Of a DNA stretch of 64,000 nucleotides, positions 13,804-35,151 are shown piece by piece. Origin of the DNA: Candidatus Eiseniibacteriota bacterium (GTDB taxonomy: Bacteria; Eisenbacteria; RBG-16-71-46; CAZEPH01); NCBI GenBank assembly GCA_044229145.1, contig JBGATO010000009.1, forward strand, positions 17,312 to 81,311, given 5' to 3'. The notes beneath the pieces are model-generated. The model did not search any database, was not told where the DNA came from, and saw nothing but the letters and a program-made list of their open reading frames with translations. The position numbers were made by a program, and so were the translations under genes. Numbering within the stretch: the stretch's first letter is position 1; the number at the start of each line of letters is the position of its first letter.

Positions 13804-14901
13804 ATGCCGACTCGCACCGAACCACGCACACGGGACGCCTGGATGGATCTGGCGCTGGCCGCGCTCGACCGGGGCGTGCTGGCGCTCGACGACGAGCGCC
13901 GGGTGGTCTTCGTGAACCGCCGGGCCGAGGAGATGCTCGGCCGCTCCGGCGACGAACTGGCCGGTCTGGAGATTTGCGCCGCCCTTGGCGCCCGCGACGA
14001 CCGCTGGCTCGACCCCGAAGGCGACGCCCGGCTCGGCGAACCGGACGCCGAGCGCGTCCTGCGCTTCGAGGTCGGCGGCCGCGAGGTCGCCCTGCGCAGC
14101 GAACCGGCGGCCCTGCTCGACGGCCGCGGCACGGCGGCCGGCACCGTCGTGCTGCTCGAGGAGGAGGACAGCGACCCCGACCTCGAGCAAGCCCGGAAGA
14201 CCGACCGCCTGATTTCGCTCGGCGAGTTATCGGCCTATGTGGCCCACGAGATTCGCAATCCGCTCACCGGTATCCGGACCACGGTGCAATTCGTCGGGTC
14301 GAAGCTGGCGCCCGACGACGACCGCCGCCAGGACCTCGCCGACGTCATCGCCGAGATCGACCGCATCGAGCAGATCATCACCAGCCTGCTGATCTTCGCG
14401 CGGCCGCCAGTGGGCAAGCCATCGCCGACCGCGGTGGGCGACGTGGTGCGTCGCGCCCTCGATAACGTGGCGCCGCAGTGCGCGAGCGCGGGGGTCGCGG
14501 TGGAGATCGCGATCGCCGACGCGGTGCCGCTGGTGCGGGCGGACGCCGACCTCCTGCTGCAGGTCTTCCTCAATCTCGCGCTCAACGCGGTGCAGGCGAT
14601 GACCGAGGGCGGCGGCACTCTCAGCGTCTCGGTGTCGCCGAAGCGCACGCGCTATCGCCGCAACATGGTCGACGTGGTGTTCGCCGACACCGGCGGCGGC
14701 ATCGCGCCCGAGGCGCTCGAGAAGATCTTCGCGCCGTTCTTCACCACGCGGTCGGCGGGTACCGGACTCGGGCTCGCGATCTCGCAGCAGATCGTGCGCG
14801 AGTACGACGGGCTGATCAGTGCGGCCAACCGGCCAGGCGGCGGCGCGCAGTTCCGCGTGTTGTTGCCGGGGCTCTCCGCGCGGCAGGCGGCACATGCCTG
14901 A
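13804..14901 (+). CDS. Cytoplasmic PAS-domain sensor histidine kinase (NtrB/AtoS-like)
   Basis: PAS start (VVFVNRRAEEMLG), H-box AHEIRNPL, N-box NLALNAVQA, DTGGG, FAPFFTT, GTGLGL; no TM segment. Confidence 0.93.
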   Translation: MPTRTEPRTRDAWMDLALAALDRGVLALDDERRVVFVNRRAEEMLGRSGDELAGLEICAALGARDDRWLDPEGDARLGEPDAERVLRFEVGGREVALRSEPAALLDGRGTAAGTVVLLEEEDSDPDLEQARKTDRLISLGELSAYVAHEIRNPLTGIRTTVQFVGSKLAPDDDRRQDLADVIAEIDRIEQIITSLLIFARPPVGKPSPTAVGDVVRRALDNVAPQCASAGVAVEIAIADAVPLVRADADLLLQVFLNLALNAVQAMTEGGGTLSVSVSPKRTRYRRNMVDVVFADTGGGIAPEALEKIFAPFFTTRSAGTGLGLAISQQIVREYDGLISAANRPGGGAQFRVLLPGLSARQAAHA

Positions 14902-16357
14902 TCTCGGACTCGTCCGCGCCGCGACGCGCGTGCTCGTCATCGACGACGAACCATCGATTCGCCGTTCGCTCACCCGCGTGCTCGAGGAGCGCGGCTTCGA
15001 GGTCGAAACCGCGCGCACCGGCGGGGACGGCCTCAAGGCCGCCGAACGCTGGGATCCGACGGTGGTGTTGCTCGACCTCAAGTTGCCCGACGCCACCGGG
15101 CTCGAGATCCTGCGCGCCCTGAAGGAACGCGACCCGGCGGTCGCGGTGCTGATGATCACTGCGTACGGCGACGTCTCCGAAGCGGTCGAAGCCCTGCGTC
15201 TCGGCGCCGCCGACTTCCTCAAGAAGCCGTACGAACTCGAAGATGTCGTGTTGTCGGTCACCGCGGCGGCGCGTCGCGCGGCACTCGAGGCCGAGCTCGC
15301 CCGCTATCGCGCCCGCGACGCCGACACGCTGCGCCGCGACACCTTCCTTGGCGAATGCGAAGCCGTACAGGAACTCCGGGCGCTCATCGTCAAGGTGGCG
15401 CGCGGCAGCGGCACCACCGTCCTGCTCGAGGGAGAAAGCGGCACCGGCAAAGAGGTGGTGGCGCGCGCCGTGCACCGCGAGAGCGACCGGCGCGACGGTC
15501 CGTTCATGGACATCAACTGCGCCGCGGTCCAGGAGACGCTGCTCGAGAACGAACTGTTCGGCCACGAACGCGGTGCCTTCACCGATGCGCGTGAACTCAA
15601 GCGCGGGCTCGCCGAACTCGCCGACGGCGGGACGTTGTTCCTCGACGAAGTCGCCGACATGCCGGCGGCGGTGCAGGCGAAGCTGCTACGCTTCCTCGAC
15701 GGCCGCACGTTCAAGCGGGTTGGCGGCACGCGCGAGATCAGCGTCGACCTCCGGGTGATCGCCGCCACCAACAAGTCGCTCGCCGACGCGGTGGCGGACG
15801 GACGCTTCCGTGCCGATCTCTACTATCGCCTCCGCGTCGTGTCGCTCACCCTGCCGCCGCTGCGCGAGCGTGGCGGCGATGTCGAACTGCTCGCCGAGCA
15901 CTTCCTCGCGCAGTACGCCAAGCGCTTCCACAAGCGCTTCCGCGGCTTGAGCGACGCCTGCCGCGCGGTCTTCCGCCACTACTCGTGGCCGGGCAACGTG
16001 CGCGAGTTGAAGAACGTGATCGAACGCGCCGTGCTGCTCGAGGACGCGGTGTGGCTGGAGCCGGCGCACCTGCCGGCAGAGATCGCGTTGCTCGGCGCGC
16101 CCGACGTGGCGCTCCCGCCGCACACGCTCGACGACGTTGCGCCGCTGCTCGACGAGGCGGCGGACGAGGAACTCGCCGGCACTCCGCCCGACGGATTACT
16201 CACCCTCGACGAAATCACCGATCGCCATATCCTCGCCGTGTTGGAGCATTGCCACGGCAATCGTTCGCAGGCCGCGCGCGTGTTGGGATTGTCGCGCCAA
16301 GGTCTGCTCAATCGTCTGCGCAGTTTGCAAGATCGCTTGCCCCGCATCACGAGTTGA
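14894..16357 (+). CDS. Sigma54-dependent response regulator (REC-AAA+-Fis HTH, NtrC/AtoC family)
   Basis: VLVIDDE...LLD receiver, GESGTGKE, ELFGHERGAFTDA, LFLDEV, WPGNVREL, GNRSQAARVLGLSR. Confidence 0.95.
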   Translation: MPDLGLVRAATRVLVIDDEPSIRRSLTRVLEERGFEVETARTGGDGLKAAERWDPTVVLLDLKLPDATGLEILRALKERDPAVAVLMITAYGDVSEAVEALRLGAADFLKKPYELEDVVLSVTAAARRAALEAELARYRARDADTLRRDTFLGECEAVQELRALIVKVARGSGTTVLLEGESGTGKEVVARAVHRESDRRDGPFMDINCAAVQETLLENELFGHERGAFTDARELKRGLAELADGGTLFLDEVADMPAAVQAKLLRFLDGRTFKRVGGTREISVDLRVIAATNKSLADAVADGRFRADLYYRLRVVSLTLPPLRERGGDVELLAEHFLAQYAKRFHKRFRGLSDACRAVFRHYSWPGNVRELKNVIERAVLLEDAVWLEPAHLPAEIALLGAPDVALPPHTLDDVAPLLDEAADEELAGTPPDGLLTLDEITDRHILAVLEHCHGNRSQAARVLGLSRQGLLNRLRSLQDRLPRITS

Positions 16358-16360
16358 TCC

Positions 16361-16439
16361 TGTCCACAATCTAGACGTGTCAACGAAGTAGACAGGCGAG
16401 CGCGCGCTGCGCCTGCGTGCGCTGTCCACATCGTTCACA
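16361..16439. promoter_or_regulatory. Three putative enhancer-binding-protein sites (TGTC-N9-GACA-like)
   Basis: TGTCCACAATCTAGACG (16361-16377), TGTCAACGAAGTAGACA (16378-16394), TGTCCACATCGTTCACA (16423-16439). AT-richer than the surroundings and upstream of a sigma54 promoter. Confidence 0.6.
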
Positions 16440-16537
16440 GGCGCCTCGCGCGCGCCCGTGCGGCGGACGAATGCGGCGCGACGATTTCGTGGCGTCCGTA
16501 TGCGGTTTTCGCTGCACGTCGTGTGCGTCGCGGAGAA

Positions 16538-16555
16538 TTGGCACGCCGACTGCTA
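16538..16555 (+). promoter_or_regulatory. Sigma54 (-24/-12) promoter
   Basis: TTGGCACGCCGACTGCTA: GG at 16540-16541, exactly 10 nt, GC at 16552-16553. Confidence 0.8.
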
Positions 16556-16604
16556 TCTCGTGACGCTGCGAAATGCGTGGACCGTGACGTGAGGAGGTGG
16601 GGCG

Positions 16605-16979
16605 GTGGCGCAGGCAATTCTCATCGTCGATGACGAGCGCCTCCTGGTTCGCACGCTCTCGGCGGCTCTTCGAGAGGCCGGGTATCGTACCGTCACGGCA
16701 TCGTCCGCGGAACAGGCCGAGAAATATCTCGAGCCGGACGCGGCGATCGCGGTCGCGGTGCTGGACAATCGCCTTCCCGGGCGCTCAGGGATCGAGATGC
16801 TGCGGGAAGCGCGTGCGCGAGGTCTGGAGTGGCGGGTCGTCCTGATGACCGCCTTCGAGAGCGCGGACGCACAACGAGAGGCCACGGAACTCGGGGTGGA
16901 TCGCTACGTGCACAAGCCGTTCGATCTGCCGGACATGGTGTCGACCATCGCCGCTCTGTACGGAGCACGCGAGGTCTGA
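16605..16979 (+). CDS. Single-domain response regulator (CheY-like receiver)
   Basis: GAGGAGG RBS, ILIVDDE, VLD-NRLPG, MTA, KPF. Confidence 0.92.
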   Translation: MAQAILIVDDERLLVRTLSAALREAGYRTVTASSAEQAEKYLEPDAAIAVAVLDNRLPGRSGIEMLREARARGLEWRVVLMTAFESADAQREATELGVDRYVHKPFDLPDMVSTIAALYGAREV

Positions 16980-17018
16980 CGAGTCCTCTGCAAACCACGA
17001 GGGGAGGTGACGAAGACA

Positions 17019-17162
17019 ATGGCAGCTGCGAAGAAGGCGGCGAAGAAGGTGGCCAAGAAGGCTCCGGCCAAGAAGGCCGTGAAGAAGGCCGCGAAGAAGG
17101 CGACGAAGAAGGTCGCCAAGAAGGCGACGAAGAAGGTCGCGAAGAAGGCCGCGAAGAAGTAA
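17019..17162 (+). CDS. 47-aa histone H1-like Lys/Ala-rich protein (not in the ORF track)
   Basis: [59 protein letters not shown], 22 Lys, no acidic residue, followed by a terminator. Confidence 0.85.
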   Translation: MAAAKKAAKKVAKKAPAKKAVKKAAKKATKKVAKKATKKVAKKAAKK

Positions 17163-17183
17163 CCTCGGCTGGATGCGGTACTC

Positions 17184-17223
17184 GCGGGGATCACCGAGTC
17201 TCTCGGTGGTCCCCCGCTTCTTT
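17184..17223 (+). terminator. Intrinsic terminator closing the sigma54 operon
   Basis: GCGGGGATCACCGAG-TCT-CTCGGTGGTCCCCCGC followed by TTCTTT. Confidence 0.75.
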
Positions 17224-17234
17224 GGGGGCGCGCG

Positions 17235-17729
17235 GTGACGGCTCGGACGATCGGCATGGGAGTGGCGATCGCGGCATGCGTGGCGATCGCGGGGTGGCGG
17301 GTGGCGCAGTGGGCGCCGCGCGACCGCGGCCTGACGCGCGCCGATTCGTATCCCGCCTCGGTGGTGGCGCCGCCGCCGGGCAGTTACACGCTGCGGTTGC
17401 CGCCGGGCGACTGGCGCCCGCGGACGTTGGCGCCGGGAACCGCGGCGGTGCGAGAGTTGCCGGTGCGCCTCGTGTTTCCGCCCGACGCGCCGGGCACGGA
17501 TTCGTCGCGCTACGAAGGGCTGTACTTGGCGCCGGCGGGGGAGCCGGCGGGCGCGACGCATCGCGTGGTGTTGTTGGCCGAGGCGCCCGAGGCGGGCGAA
17601 TGGGGAGCCCGTGCCGCGGCGTTGGTGCGTCCAGGGCAGTGGTGTTTGGTGGTGGCGTTGCGGTCTCCCGAACCGCCAGACGATTCGCTCACGCTCGTGC
17701 TGACCGCGGCAGCGCGCGCCGCCGAATGA
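17235..17729 (+). CDS. Hypothetical exported or membrane-anchored protein
   Basis: N-terminal hydrophobic segment; fills the gap between the terminator and a convergent gene. No family recognised. Confidence 0.5.
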   Translation: MTARTIGMGVAIAACVAIAGWRVAQWAPRDRGLTRADSYPASVVAPPPGSYTLRLPPGDWRPRTLAPGTAAVRELPVRLVFPPDAPGTDSSRYEGLYLAPAGEPAGATHRVVLLAEAPEAGEWGARAAALVRPGQWCLVVALRSPEPPDDSLTLVLTAAARAAE

Positions 17730-17733
17730 CGCA

Positions 17734-19152
17734 CTACGGCGCGTACGGGGTGATCGCCCGGACGTGGCCGTCCCATCCCATCGCCACCACGGTGCGGCCC
17801 GGATAGGGCTCGCCGACTTGCGGAAACGCGACGGCGCGCAGTCGCGGGCACACCATCGTCAACGCCCGTCCATCGGACAGCGCGCTGCGCACGTTCTGCC
17901 CGTACCAGCCGTGATTGCGCCAGGCGGCGCGCGGATAGCGGCGCGGCATCCACACCGCGACGGCGTCGCCGAGCGGCACGCCGGCGAGATCGCCCACCGC
18001 GTGTCCGGCAATCTGCGCGTGGCGCAGCGAGGATTGCGCGTGCACGTCGGTCCCCGGCAGCCGCGCGTCTTCGATGCGGCCGAGTGTGGTCGCCGACCCT
18101 GCGAGACACACGGCGCCAAGCGCACAAGCGATCGCCGGCGGCACGCGCGGCTCACTCAGGGCGCGTGCCGCCAGGATCGCCACGCCGGTCAGCGGCATGT
18201 AGAGGTAGTAGAGGACGAACATGCTGCGCGTCGTCGTCGCCGGCGCGATGCCGCACACGAACCACGCTGCGGCGAACCACGCGAGTGGCCGCACCGCGGG
18301 CCGCGCCGCGCACGACGCCCACGCCGCGACCGCCGCCGCGATGAACCACGGAGACGGCGACGCCACGTTGCGGTACGCATCCACCCGCGTGCCGAACCAA
18401 TCTGCGGTCGCGCTCACGTAGCCAAGGAATTGACCCAGCGCCTCCGTGGGAGAGGCGGAGATGTAGAGGTGCGCGAACTGTTGTGTCACCCACGCGCCGG
18501 TCAGCCGCAATAGCGCCAGCCAGGCGACGCTCACGCCGAGCATCGTCCACGCGGCGCGGCGCCGCCCCGGCAGCAGCAGCATCGCCAGCGGCAGCGCGGC
18601 CACGGTTTCCTTACAGGCGAGGGCGACGACGAAGCAACCCACCGCCGCGGCGATGCGCCCGTCGAGCACCAGCCAGAGCGAGACCAGCGCGGCGAGCGCC
18701 GCCGCGATATCGGCCGCGCTCGCCACGTTGTAGAGGCTGTAGGCATGTGTCGCCCCGGCGGCGAACGCGGCCGCCGCGACCACCGCCGGCACACGGCCTG
18801 CGCCGTAGCGGCGCGCCACGCGCGTCACCATCCACGCGACCGTGAGGTGAAGCGCCAGCACCACGGCGTGATACGGCCAGGCAGTGGCCCCTGCCGCCGC
18901 CCACAGCGCGTGGAACATCGCGACGACGACGATGCGCCACGGGCCGTGCCACGCGCCGGCGAGCAGAAAGTCATCCTGGTGCAGGGCGAGTCGCGCGGTG
19001 CCGCCCCACCAGGCGAGGACGACCACGGCGAGGAGCGCGACATCGAAGGCGTCGCGGCGATCGCGCGGGATCAGCGAGAGGCGCGGCGGCGGAACGGACG
19101 GCGCCGGCGCAGCAGTCGGGCGCGGCGGGCGCGTGGAGCGTCGGGAGGACAT
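17734..19152 (-). CDS. Multi-pass membrane protein, GT-C glycosyltransferase-like
   Basis: About 10 hydrophobic helices, acidic QDDF loop after TM1, YHAVVLALH and ALACKETVAALP motifs. Confidence 0.6.
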   Translation of the reverse strand: MSSRRSTRPPRPTAAPAPSVPPPRLSLIPRDRRDAFDVALLAVVVLAWWGGTARLALHQDDFLLAGAWHGPWRIVVVAMFHALWAAAGATAWPYHAVVLALHLTVAWMVTRVARRYGAGRVPAVVAAAAFAAGATHAYSLYNVASAADIAAALAALVSLWLVLDGRIAAAVGCFVVALACKETVAALPLAMLLLPGRRRAAWTMLGVSVAWLALLRLTGAWVTQQFAHLYISASPTEALGQFLGYVSATADWFGTRVDAYRNVASPSPWFIAAAVAAWASCAARPAVRPLAWFAAAWFVCGIAPATTTRSMFVLYYLYMPLTGVAILAARALSEPRVPPAIACALGAVCLAGSATTLGRIEDARLPGTDVHAQSSLRHAQIAGHAVGDLAGVPLGDAVAVWMPRRYPRAAWRNHGWYGQNVRSALSDGRALTMVCPRLRAVAFPQVGEPYPGRTVVAMGWDGHVRAITPYAP

Positions 19153-19229
19153 GCGGGCGATTGTGGCGAGCCGCCGCGCCTCTGACAACCCCGCGCCTCG
19201 CATGCCGCGGTGGTAGACTGCGCCGCATC

Positions 19230-32420: not shown

Positions 32421-33580
32421 ATCTGTACGAGTTCCAAGCGCGCGAGCTGCTGCGGCAGGGGGGGATCCCGGTGCCGCGCGGCGAGGTCGCGCGTACCGCC
32501 GCGGAGGCGCGCGCCATCGCCGAGCGCACGCCCGGGCTCCTGGTCATCAAGGCGCAGGTGCACGCCGGCGGCCGCGGCAAGGCCGGCGGCGTGAAGCTGG
32601 CGCGCACGCCGGACGAGGCGCACACGCACGCGGCGAACATCCTGCAGCTCACCATCAAGGGACTGCCGGTACGCCAGGTGCTGGTCTCGAGCGCCGTCGA
32701 CATCGCGCACGAGTACTATGTCTCGATCCTCATCGACCGCGCGGCGAAGGCGCCGATGCTGATGGCGAGCTCCGCCGGCGGCATGGACATCGAGGAAGTC
32801 GCGGCGACGGCGCCGGAGAAGATCGTCAAGGTCGGTCTCTCCGCGGATCGCCCGATGACGCAGGCGGAGGCCGACGATGTCGCGGCGCGTCTCGGATTCA
32901 CCGGACACGCGGCGCGGCAAGCCGCCGACATCTTCCGCAAACTCGAGACGGTGTTCTGGCAGAGCGACGCGTCGCTCGTCGAAGTGAATCCGCTCGTCGT
33001 GTCGCCCGATCAGGCGGTGTGGGCGGTGGACGCAAAGATCTCGCTCGACGACAACGCGCTCTTCCGGCACAGTGATCTCGAATCGTTGCGCGACGAGTCG
33101 GCGGAGGATCCGCGTGAAGTTCAGGCGCGGCATGCCGATCTTTCTTTCGTCGGACTGCAAGGTGCGATAGGCTGTTGCGTGAATGGTGCAGGACTCGCGA
33201 TGGCCACGATGGATCTCGTGAAGTACTTCGGCGGCGAACCGGCGAACTTTCTCGACATCGGCGGTTCGAGTAATCCGACGAAGGTCGTCAACGCGATGAA
33301 GATCCTCACCAGCGATCCCGATGTGCGCGCGGTGCTGATCAACATCTTCGGTGGCATCACGCGCTGCGACGATGTGGCGCGCGGAATCCTGACGGCGCTC
33401 GACGAACTGACGATCACGCTGCCGATCGTGATCCGCCTGACCGGGACGCGCGAAGCGGAGGCCAAGGAACTGCTCGAGAAGGAAGGCCGCGGACGCCTCA
33501 TGTGGGCGTCGACGATGGACGAAGCCGTGCAGAAGGTCATCAAGGCTGCCGGCGGGACGGTCAAGGGGGTGCGCTCGTGA
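32417..33580 (+). CDS. sucC: Succinate--CoA ligase subunit beta
   Basis: [58 protein letters not shown]. Confidence 0.97.
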
Positions 33581-35151
33581 GCATCCTGATCGACCGTTCC
33601 ACCCGCGTCCTCGTCCAGGGCATCACCGGCCGCGACGGTTCGTTCCACGCCCGCTCCATGAAGGCGTACGGCACCCAGGTGGTCGGGGGAGTGACACCCG
33701 GCAAGGGTGGCCAGTTCGTCGACGACATGCCGGTGTTCAATAGTGTCGCCGAAGGGCGCGCCGCCACCGGCGCCAACGCCACCTGCATTTTCGTCCCCGC
33801 GCCGTTCGCCGCGAAGGCGATCCTCGAAGCGGCGGACGCCGGCATCGAGTTCATCGTCGCCATCACCGAGGGCGTGCCCGTCCTCGACATGTCGAAGGTG
33901 TGGAAGGCGCTCCAGGACAAGCCGAAGACACGGCTGCTCGGCGCCAACTGTCCCGGCCTCATCACGCCGGGCCAGTCCAAGATCGGCATCATGCCGGGCC
34001 ACATCACGACGCCCGGACCGATCGGCCTCGTCTCGCGCTCCGGCACGCTCACCTATGAAGTGGTATGGGCGCTCACCGAAGCCGGCCTCGGCCAGACGAC
34101 CTGCGTCGGCATCGGCGGCGACCCGATCAACGGCACCAACTTCCTCGACGTGCTGCGCATGTTCGAGGCGGATCCGGCCACCAAGGCCGTGGTGATGATC
34201 GGCGAGATCGGCGGCAATGACGAAGAAGTCGCCGCCGAGTTCATCCGCACACAAATGACCAAGCCCGTGGTCGGATTCATCGCCGGCCAGACCGCCCCGC
34301 CTGGCCGCCGCATGGGCCACGCCGGCGCGATCGTCACCGGCAACTCGGGCACCGCGGAATCGAAGATCGAGGCGTTCCGCCGCGCCGGCGTACCGGTGGC
34401 GCGCATCACCTCGGAGATTCCGGGACTCATTCGGCAGGTCATGGCGAAGCGCGGCGCAGCGAAGCCCGCGCCGAAGAAGGCCACGCCTGCCAGCAAGACG
34501 TTGGAGGACGGCGCGAAGCGGCGCGCGAAGGCATCGTCGGTGAAGACGAAGCCCACCCCCGCCGCCAAGGCCGCGTCTGCGAAGACGAAGGCGACCGCGA
34601 ACAAGGCGAAGACAGCACCGTCGGGGAAGACGGCGCCCAAGGCTGCATCGTCGGTGAAGACGACGCAGAAGTCTGCCGTGTCCGCGAAGCGCGCATCCTC
34701 CACGAGACCGGCTGCGCACGGAAAGGCGCAGCCCGGTCGCCCCGCCGGCTCGGCGGCCGTGAAGACGGCCAAGGCGTCCGGTGGGTCACGCGTCACGTCC
34801 GAACGGTCGGGCGGGACGCGTCGCGCGTCGAGCTCCCAGGCAGGAACGCGCACGGAGACCACCGCACCCAAGACGCAGAAAGCGTCTCGGACTACCGTGG
34901 GAGGAAGAATGGCAAAGACTGCTGCTCCGAAGAAGGCTGCCAAGAAGGCGGCGAAGAAGTCGACCGCCAAGAAGGCGGCGAAGAAGGCCACCAAGAAGGC
35001 CACGAAGAAGGTCGCGAAGAAGGCCACCAAGAAGACGGCCAAGAAGGCGACGAAGAAGGCCGTGAAGAAGGTCGCGAAGAAGGCTCCGGCCAAGAAGGCG
35101 GCGAAGAAGCGCACCGCGAAGAAGGCCGCGAAGAAGGCCGCCAAGAAGTAA
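33577..35151 (+). CDS. sucD: Succinate--CoA ligase subunit alpha with a ~236-aa Lys/Ala-rich C-terminal extension
   Basis: [39 protein letters not shown] (phospho-His). No stop after the normal end near 34440. Confidence 0.93.
34909..35151 (+). CDS. Nested in-frame 80-aa histone H1-like protein at the end of sucD
   Basis: GGGAGGAAGA-ATG internal start; [13 protein letters not shown]...[10 protein letters not shown], 37 Lys and no acidic residue. Confidence 0.65.

Follow-up and report, generated by a model that had tools for sequence, protein, structure and literature searches.

The present analysis concerns a putative two-component sigma-54 circuit in a 64,000-nucleotide stretch of the genome of a Candidatus Eiseniibacteriota bacterium (contig JBGATO010000009.1). 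This whole stretch is called the window in the following, and all positions refer to it. On the plus strand, the genes for a histidine kinase and an NtrC-type activator are followed by three palindrome-like sites, a predicted sigma-54 promoter, the genes for a lone receiver and for a very small Lys/Ala-rich protein, and a terminator-like hairpin (Table 1). These seven elements had been described in an earlier note made from the letters alone, and every one of them was confirmed where that note had placed it. The start of the activator gene overlaps the end of the kinase gene by 11 nucleotides (nt), the 247-bp spacer between the activator and receiver genes contains the three sites, and a gap of 39 nt separates the receiver gene from the small open reading frame (ORF). 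An rpoN gene was found in the same genome, which is represented by an assembly of 4.23 Mb with 89% completeness.

Table 1. Features of the putative sigma-54 circuit in the window (aa, amino acids).
Feature	Position	Strand	Details
Cytoplasmic PAS-HisKA-HATPase histidine kinase	13804-14901	+	365 aa; Pfam
NtrC-type sigma-54 activator	14891-16357	+	488 aa; REC, AAA+ and HTH_8; Pfam
Enhancer site 1 (putative)	16361-16377		TGTCCACAATCTAGACG, 17 bp; adjoins site 2
Enhancer site 2 (putative)	16378-16394		TGTCAACGAAGTAGACA, 17 bp; exact TGTC-N9-GACA
Enhancer site 3 (putative)	16423-16439		TGTCCACATCGTTCACA, 17 bp
Predicted sigma-54 -24/-12 promoter	16539-16554	+	TGGCACGCCGACTGCT; GG at 16540-16541, GC at 16552-16553
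Single-domain receiver	16605-16979	+	124 aa; GTG start, GAGGAGG 7 nt upstream; Pfam
Lys/Ala-repeat ORF	17019-17162	+	47 aa; GGGGAGGTG at 17001-17009 before the ATG
Terminator-like hairpin with short T-containing tail	17186-17224	+	stem 17186-17214

The kinase gave Pfam matches to PAS_8 (5.5e-6), HisKA (1.6e-14) and HATPase_c (1.7e-22). It combines a dimerisation domain bearing the H-box AHEIRNPL with an ATPase domain, as is characteristic of HisKA-type sensor kinases, and a search for an N-terminal hydrophobic or membrane segment found none. The activator matched Response_reg (PF00072, 3.9e-28), Sigma54_activat (PF00158, 1.9e-65), HTH_8 (PF02954, 3.8e-10) and AAA_lid_14, and thus has the receiver, the AAA+ domain and the Fis-type helix-turn-helix that define NtrC-class bacterial enhancer-binding proteins. 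The best NCBIfam matches were AtoS (250.6 bits, cut-off 646), AtoC (421.6 bits, cut-off 714) and NtrC (414.6 bits, cut-off 558.6), and the activator reached 310.2 bits against the GlrR model with its cut-off of 763. With scores below the equivalog cut-offs of AtoC, NtrC and GlrR, the activator does not qualify as a member of any of these three families.

The order of kinase, activator, palindromic sites, -24/-12 element, receiver, Lys-rich ORF and hairpin recurs in all 42 genomes that were read. Among 20 loci of the same class, the activator gene lies upstream of the receiver gene in every case and the kinase gene upstream of the activator gene in 19, the contig being cut in the twentieth. Hence, the synteny and the motif conservation in relatives that had been named in the earlier note as a check were both found, and an arrangement conserved in this way across relatives is not a product of chance. 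A PpiD-like gene upstream (12 of 21 loci) and uvrA downstream (10 of 21) are recurrent neighbours, which indicates that the module is a stable chromosomal feature. Of the 206 genomes of the phylum, all belonging to one class, 99 have a receiver ortholog, the unpublished genome G083 among them, and these 99 represent 17 of 18 families. The largest family has no receiver ortholog in any of its 89 genomes, yet rpoN is kept in 40 of its 41 sampled members; with the peptide of the window as query, no Lys/Ala ORF was found in five of five genomes of this family. In the named collection the three best matches were metagenome-assembled genomes (MAGs) labelled Candidatus Eisenbacteria, all with the module; among the matches listed they were the three true orthologs, and the remaining 77 loci contained paralogous receivers and no Lys-rich ORF. 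Ortholog searches at E <= 1e-32 in three other phyla, namely those of a Bacteroidota-labelled MAG, a Sandaracinaceae-labelled MAG and Acanthopleuribacter, yielded none in 301, 251 and 251 genomes, respectively, with 14-17 receiver candidates scored per genome.

The sequence TGGCACGCCGACTGCT is the only exact match to TGGCAC-N6-TGCW in the window and combines GG-N10-GC with the TGGCAC/TGCW context in a genome that possesses rpoN, as expected for a sigma-54 promoter. An exact match is expected 0.20 times per 64 kb and appeared at least once in 19 of 100 shuffles, so it is weak evidence when taken alone. A search of 16300-17400 revealed no sigma-70-like promoter. Among 21 loci, 18 have a GG-N10-GC that agrees with the consensus in 8 or more of 10 letters, 38-65 nt ahead of the start of the receiver gene, and the remaining three have TGGCAC or TGGAAC with TGT or TGA as the -12 element. 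A further 30 loci, of which 21 represent new genomes, all carry a -24/-12 element at about -48 to -66; altogether, GG-N10-GC (or GG-N10-GT/GA) is situated 38-66 nt before the receiver start in all 42 genomes. In the window, the position of this element predicts a transcription start near 16565, about 12 nt past the GC. The presumed end of the transcript is marked by a hairpin of 13 pairs, nine of them G-C, with a folding energy of -37.7 kcal/mol (z -2.54) and a weak T-tail. The hairpin is identical in a relative of the same genus, and most relatives have a hairpin downstream of the ORF. Between the peptide stop and the hairpin, a GG(G/C)CACGTCC motif is conserved in several families, having been observed in L025, L026, L028, L030, L032, L034, L039 and L040.

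The sequencing runs with this DNA come from sludge and bioreactor samples, and ten metatranscriptomes are among the runs that hold part of the stretch. Exact RNA contigs were obtained from four metatranscriptomes of three studies (16591-16824, 16595-16845, 16847-17048, 16603-16753, 16735-16885 and 16785-17024), and they cover only 16591-17048. Two of these contigs continue past the receiver stop codon and reach the small ORF. The 5' ends at 16591, 16595 and 16603 lie 26-38 nt past the predicted start; contigs of this kind cannot map a start. No RNA contig extends over 16062-16590 or 17217-17900, these uncovered parts being no evidence of silence. The RNA depth over 16986-17216 was ignored, because it is mixed with Lys-repeat RNAs of other organisms.

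The palindrome-like sites provide the probable link between the activator and the operon. Using the consensus TGTCMA-N5-TKGACA with up to 2 mismatches and an expectation derived from shuffles, 51 enhancer-type sites were counted against 0.68 expected, and 36 of the 42 loci had one or more; two adjoining sites with a third, proximal one are a frequent layout in relatives. The 4.23-Mb assembly holds 48 sigma-54-like sites, and the enhancer motif is situated upstream of this one only. Of the four sites in the genome with up to 1 mismatch, two belong to this locus, which is also the sole place in the assembly where sites with up to 2 mismatches cluster within 100 bp. Since such a cluster was found only here, the activator looks dedicated to this promoter. 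A looser regular expression gave 1004 genome matches and does not discriminate.

Observations in three relatives connect the sites with both the operon and the activator. In L028 an insertion of 2.3 kb parts the activator gene from the sites, which remain with the receiver operon. Genome G032 has a second operon (L154, G032:C1:814500-820500) composed of a receiver gene and a 116-aa Lys/Arg-rich ORF; it shares the 19-mer CTATCCAGAAGCTGGATAG with the first copy and has a -24/-12 element of its own, the remaining spacer having diverged, and neither an activator loop motif in the surrounding 6 kb nor an adjacent kinase or activator gene was found. Finally, L027 has the only activator ortholog whose recognition helix is altered (SRRGLLYRL in place of SRQGLLNRL), and its spacer before the receiver gene carries a different, long palindrome, GCGCAAGAATTGC…GCAATTCTTGCGC. 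The claim that the circuit is self-contained hence holds for the genome of the window, whereas in G032 a second receiver-plus-peptide operon with an identical site stands elsewhere. The L028 insertion itself carries, on the opposite strand, a gene for a Ser/Thr protein kinase of 650 aa that has a TPR-like tail. It might be argued that these motifs came to lie beside an ordinary two-component pair by chance, as an exact -24/-12 match arises in 19 of 100 shuffled 64-kb sequences and as the strict TGTC-N9-GACA count of 38 in the genome, against 33.7 expected, is uninformative alone. The position-specific conservation across 42 genomes and 17 families and the restriction of the RNA contigs to the operon contradict this explanation and make it scarcely credible.

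The lone receiver matched Response_reg with 1.6e-22 and has no output domain, which makes it a single-domain response regulator. Its residues D10, D54, T82 and K104 are invariant in 20 orthologs. The ortholog group shares about 50% identity and is separated by its profile, with at least 117 bits compared to at most 102 bits for paralogs. With all acceptor residues conserved, a role of the receiver as phosphate sink, as had been suggested before, appears plausible. No Hpt partner was seen in the locus. A role as acidic chaperone was rejected, because the net charge ranges from -6 to +2 across the 20 orthologs.

It should also be considered that the receiver represents the real output, for example a Spo0F-, DivK- or CpdR-like switch acting on another target, with the peptide as an accessory that acts on RNA or ribosomes and not on the nucleoid, such as a stationary-phase basic peptide associated with ribosomes. 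The receiver is the best-conserved product, with its roughly 50% identity kept across the phylum; the best solved relatives are generic receivers that include Spo0F (83 bits); the length of the peptide varies 17-fold, and 16 aa seem too few for organising DNA. On the other hand, none of the 42 loci has lost the peptide ORF, purifying selection acts on its Lys positions, the five genomes from the receiver-less family yielded no Lys/Ala ORF either with the query used, and nothing in the data points to ribosomes. We therefore regard the receiver as the actual output as unlikely.

The peptide encoded in the window is built from Lys and Ala, together with a small number of Val, Thr and Pro residues. 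A Lys-rich ORF follows the receiver gene in all 42 genomes, and at every locus it has an ATG or rarely a GTG start, a GGAGG-type Shine-Dalgarno site 5-10 nt upstream and an intact frame. The product may be as short as 13 aa or as long as 227 aa. One family has a 16-mer of constant length, MPAKKKxxKKKxxKKK, for which 21 loci gave 17 distinct DNA sequences and nine peptides. All nine Lys positions are invariant, with AAG/AAA changes at three of them, and the spacers drift among Ala, Gly, Ser and Thr; in some other lineages Arg partly takes the place of Lys. The invariant Lys residues with their synonymous changes and the Lys-to-Arg replacements indicate selection on the protein and its charge, and the wide length range suggests that the peptide probably acts via charge and not via a fold. 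Elsewhere in the genome, the 47-aa peptide has a single match, to a Lys/Ala repeat at 34921-35058 within an open frame of 625 aa (about 33577-35151).

Given the AAG repeats, which match A-R-N triplets, the small ORF could also be untranslated and its RNA functional, for instance as an (A-R-N)n tract titrating an RNA-binding protein, or the antisense strand could encode a Phe/Ala-rich membrane peptide. In fact, an open frame of 117 aa, rich in Phe and Ala, exists on the minus strand (16904-17257), and the RNA contigs are unstranded. This frame is a mirror artefact of the AAG/GCC repeat and not a gene, and the 16-aa versions have no antisense frame with a start. Moreover, start codon, GGAGG-type site and intact frame are present at every locus, the Lys codon changes are synonymous, the exchange of Lys for Arg keeps the charge and breaks the AAG pattern, and Rfam gave no match in 16300-17300. 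A functional RNA or an antisense product is, hence, very improbable.

Alternatively, the peptide might have polyphosphate or some other polyanion that is not a nucleic acid as its target, in the way in which the KPAA-repeat tail of AlgP in Pseudomonas acts at polyphosphate granules. Starvation is a frequent trigger of sigma-54 circuits, and the sludge and bioreactor origin of the runs would fit polyphosphate as a target. The H1-like AlgP associates with polyphosphate granules and spaces them under nitrogen starvation, according to the part of PMC9239181 that deals with it, and this precedent favours the idea. However, neither PPK1 nor an above-threshold PPK2 was found in the 89%-complete genome of the window, and among five near-complete relatives with the module PPK1 is present in three and was not found in G009 (98%) and G037 (90%, single contig). 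Polyphosphate binding is weakened by the lack of a PPK1 hit here and in two of five relatives, and it seems improbable.

Four of nine longer orthologs of the peptide scored 15.8-32.7 bits with HC2 (PF07382, cut-off 40), and one ortholog of 227 aa reached 30.3 bits with the Burkholderia-type H1-like model NF038053 (cut-off 80); thus, neither the peptide of the window nor its orthologs reach the thresholds of HC2 or NF038053. The largest family bearing the module has a product of only 16 aa, a poor fit to an architectural histone-like protein. It had been expected that gene callers would miss the small output gene. This is partly supported by the finding that none of eight exact sequences (seven peptides, that of the window with two starts) occurs in a collection of 15 billion proteins, in which the receiver is present, while another choice of start or a low-complexity filter might also have kept them out. 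The long Lys/Arg-rich orthologs were observed to end in short hydrophobic C-terminal tails, which are conserved within lineages (…DLPSIFxM in L036, L039, L040 and L154; …SxRM[IV]KM in L029 and L042; …PMEMPKPF in L041; …PMEPPITIL in L033) and are lacking on the peptide of the window; these tails could be docking or degradation motifs.

Collectively, these data support a dedicated two-component sigma-54 circuit with a receiver and a peptide as its output, which we consider the probable overall explanation with moderate confidence. A cytoplasmic signal would be perceived by the PAS kinase, which would phosphorylate the NtrC-type activator. The activator would then assemble on the three 17-bp TGTC-N9-GACA-type palindromes 110-180 bp upstream of the -24/-12 promoter and spend ATP to open the sigma-54 polymerase complex. 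The resulting transcript, predicted to run from about 16565 to the hairpin near 17214, would encode the lone receiver and the 47-aa Lys/Ala peptide. Most likely by its charge, the peptide might bind and neutralise or compact nucleic acid, with DNA as the first candidate and RNA as a possible second one. The receiver would most likely take phosphate from the same kinase and thereby serve in feedback, as a sink or as a relay. The wiring of this circuit, as it had been proposed in the earlier note, was borne out by the synteny, the promoter and enhancer footprints, the genome-wide motif scan and the operon-limited RNA contigs, and we hold it to be highly probable. The charge-based binding of nucleic acids by the peptide is put forward more tentatively, at slightly less than even confidence.

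Several points weigh against this explanation. The sigma-54 contact loop of the activator (about 15551-15568) reads GAFTDA, whereas the canonical form is GAFTGA; GAFTDA or GAYTDA is found in 15 of 19 activator orthologs (loci L025-L043) and GAFTGA in four, and ten of the 15 such loops in the genome of the window are GAFTGA. The enhancer consensus was partly built from loci that were later counted, and the relatives are not independent of each other, which tempers the enrichment. L027, a relative from the same family, has no TGTC-N9-GACA sites. Due to the 89% completeness of the assembly, other targets of the activator may simply be unassembled. The RNA contigs have a depth of 2-5, are unstranded and give no start site, strand or level, and their shared ends are a weak hint only. 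Regarding the peptide, the version of the window has no Pfam or NCBIfam match at all, and many relatives have products of just 13-16 aa, a very small size for a protein that structures the nucleoid. In view of the absence of any family match, the sub-threshold scores of the orthologs and the 16-aa product of the largest module-bearing family, the original proposal of a histone-like protein for nucleoid condensation, dormancy or a developmental stage can be kept as a tentative one only. It is conceivable, and in our view rather doubtful, that a protamine-like peptide of down to 13-16 residues, consisting mostly of Lys triplets, is made on signal to neutralise and compact nucleic acids, so that the chromosome is shut down or protected, with the receiver timing or limiting the pulse.

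Each part of the circuit is of a textbook kind, and it is the combination that stands out. The description of GlrR in the relevant part of PMC3045617 provides the closest match to the promoter architecture: this two-component NtrC-type activator binds TGTC-N10-GACA motifs, of which three precede a sigma-54 promoter by over 100 bp, and here three sites are likewise situated more than 100 bp upstream of such a promoter, in both cases with one small non-enzymatic product. The half-sites are spaced by N9 and not by N10, and thus differ from GlrR-type enhancers as given there; furthermore, the output here is a receiver plus a peptide and not an sRNA (small RNA), and the kinase is a soluble PAS protein. 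NtrB/NtrC and AtoS/AtoC share the domain architectures of both proteins and include the best NCBIfam matches, but the scores remain below the cut-offs, the loop is GAFTDA and the target is not a metabolic operon.

In AlgP and likewise in PhaF, the Lys/Ala repeat is a tail on a folded domain, whereas here it makes up the whole protein. Nevertheless, AlgP, PhaF and the Burkholderia H1-like proteins (NF038053) resemble the peptide in their H1-tail-like Lys/Ala(/Pro) repeats and bind DNA, in the case of AlgP also polyphosphate granules, as far as described in the corresponding part of PMC9239181. The closest stage-specific Lys-rich protein is the chlamydial Hc2 (HctB), a repetitive basic protein rich in Lys and Ala whose length is set by the repeat number and which an alternative sigma factor turns on at a certain stage. 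It differs in that hctB depends on sigma-28, according to the relevant section of PMC12282069, and in that the peptide of the window has no HC2 match and many of its orthologs comprise only 13-30 aa. The lone receiver is similar to Spo0F, CheY-type sinks, DivK and CpdR, which also are receivers without output domain and with all acceptor residues conserved. In contrast to these, its gene is controlled by the very circuit from which it would receive phosphate, and a polycationic ORF invariably accompanies it. A private kinase-activator pair with a lone receiver and a peptide composed almost entirely of Lys as its only conserved target was not found in open-access papers or on bioRxiv.

Downstream of the operon, two genes separate it from uvrA in the window, at 17235-17729 (+) and 17734-19203 (-); in other families uvrA lies directly downstream of the operon. 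The first encodes a 164-aa protein with an N-terminal hydrophobic segment, which is kept in the same genus and family, and the second a multi-span membrane protein of 489 aa. No NCBIfam match was obtained for either of them, and the 164-aa protein has no Pfam match either (the 489-aa protein was compared with NCBIfam only).

The circuit offers a compact and testable case in which members of an uncultured phylum may switch their global physical state on a signal, a state in which DNA or RNA could be neutralised in charge or compacted. It also indicates that a conserved signalling pathway can have products of 13-50 aa, which are apparently absent from large protein catalogues, as its only output. 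A reconstruction of the circuit in E. coli would be feasible, since this species possesses sigma-54. If the protamine-like function were true, no dedicated gene product known to act on chromatin would be smaller than this peptide, controlled as it is by a private sigma-54 switch that is kept phylum-wide.

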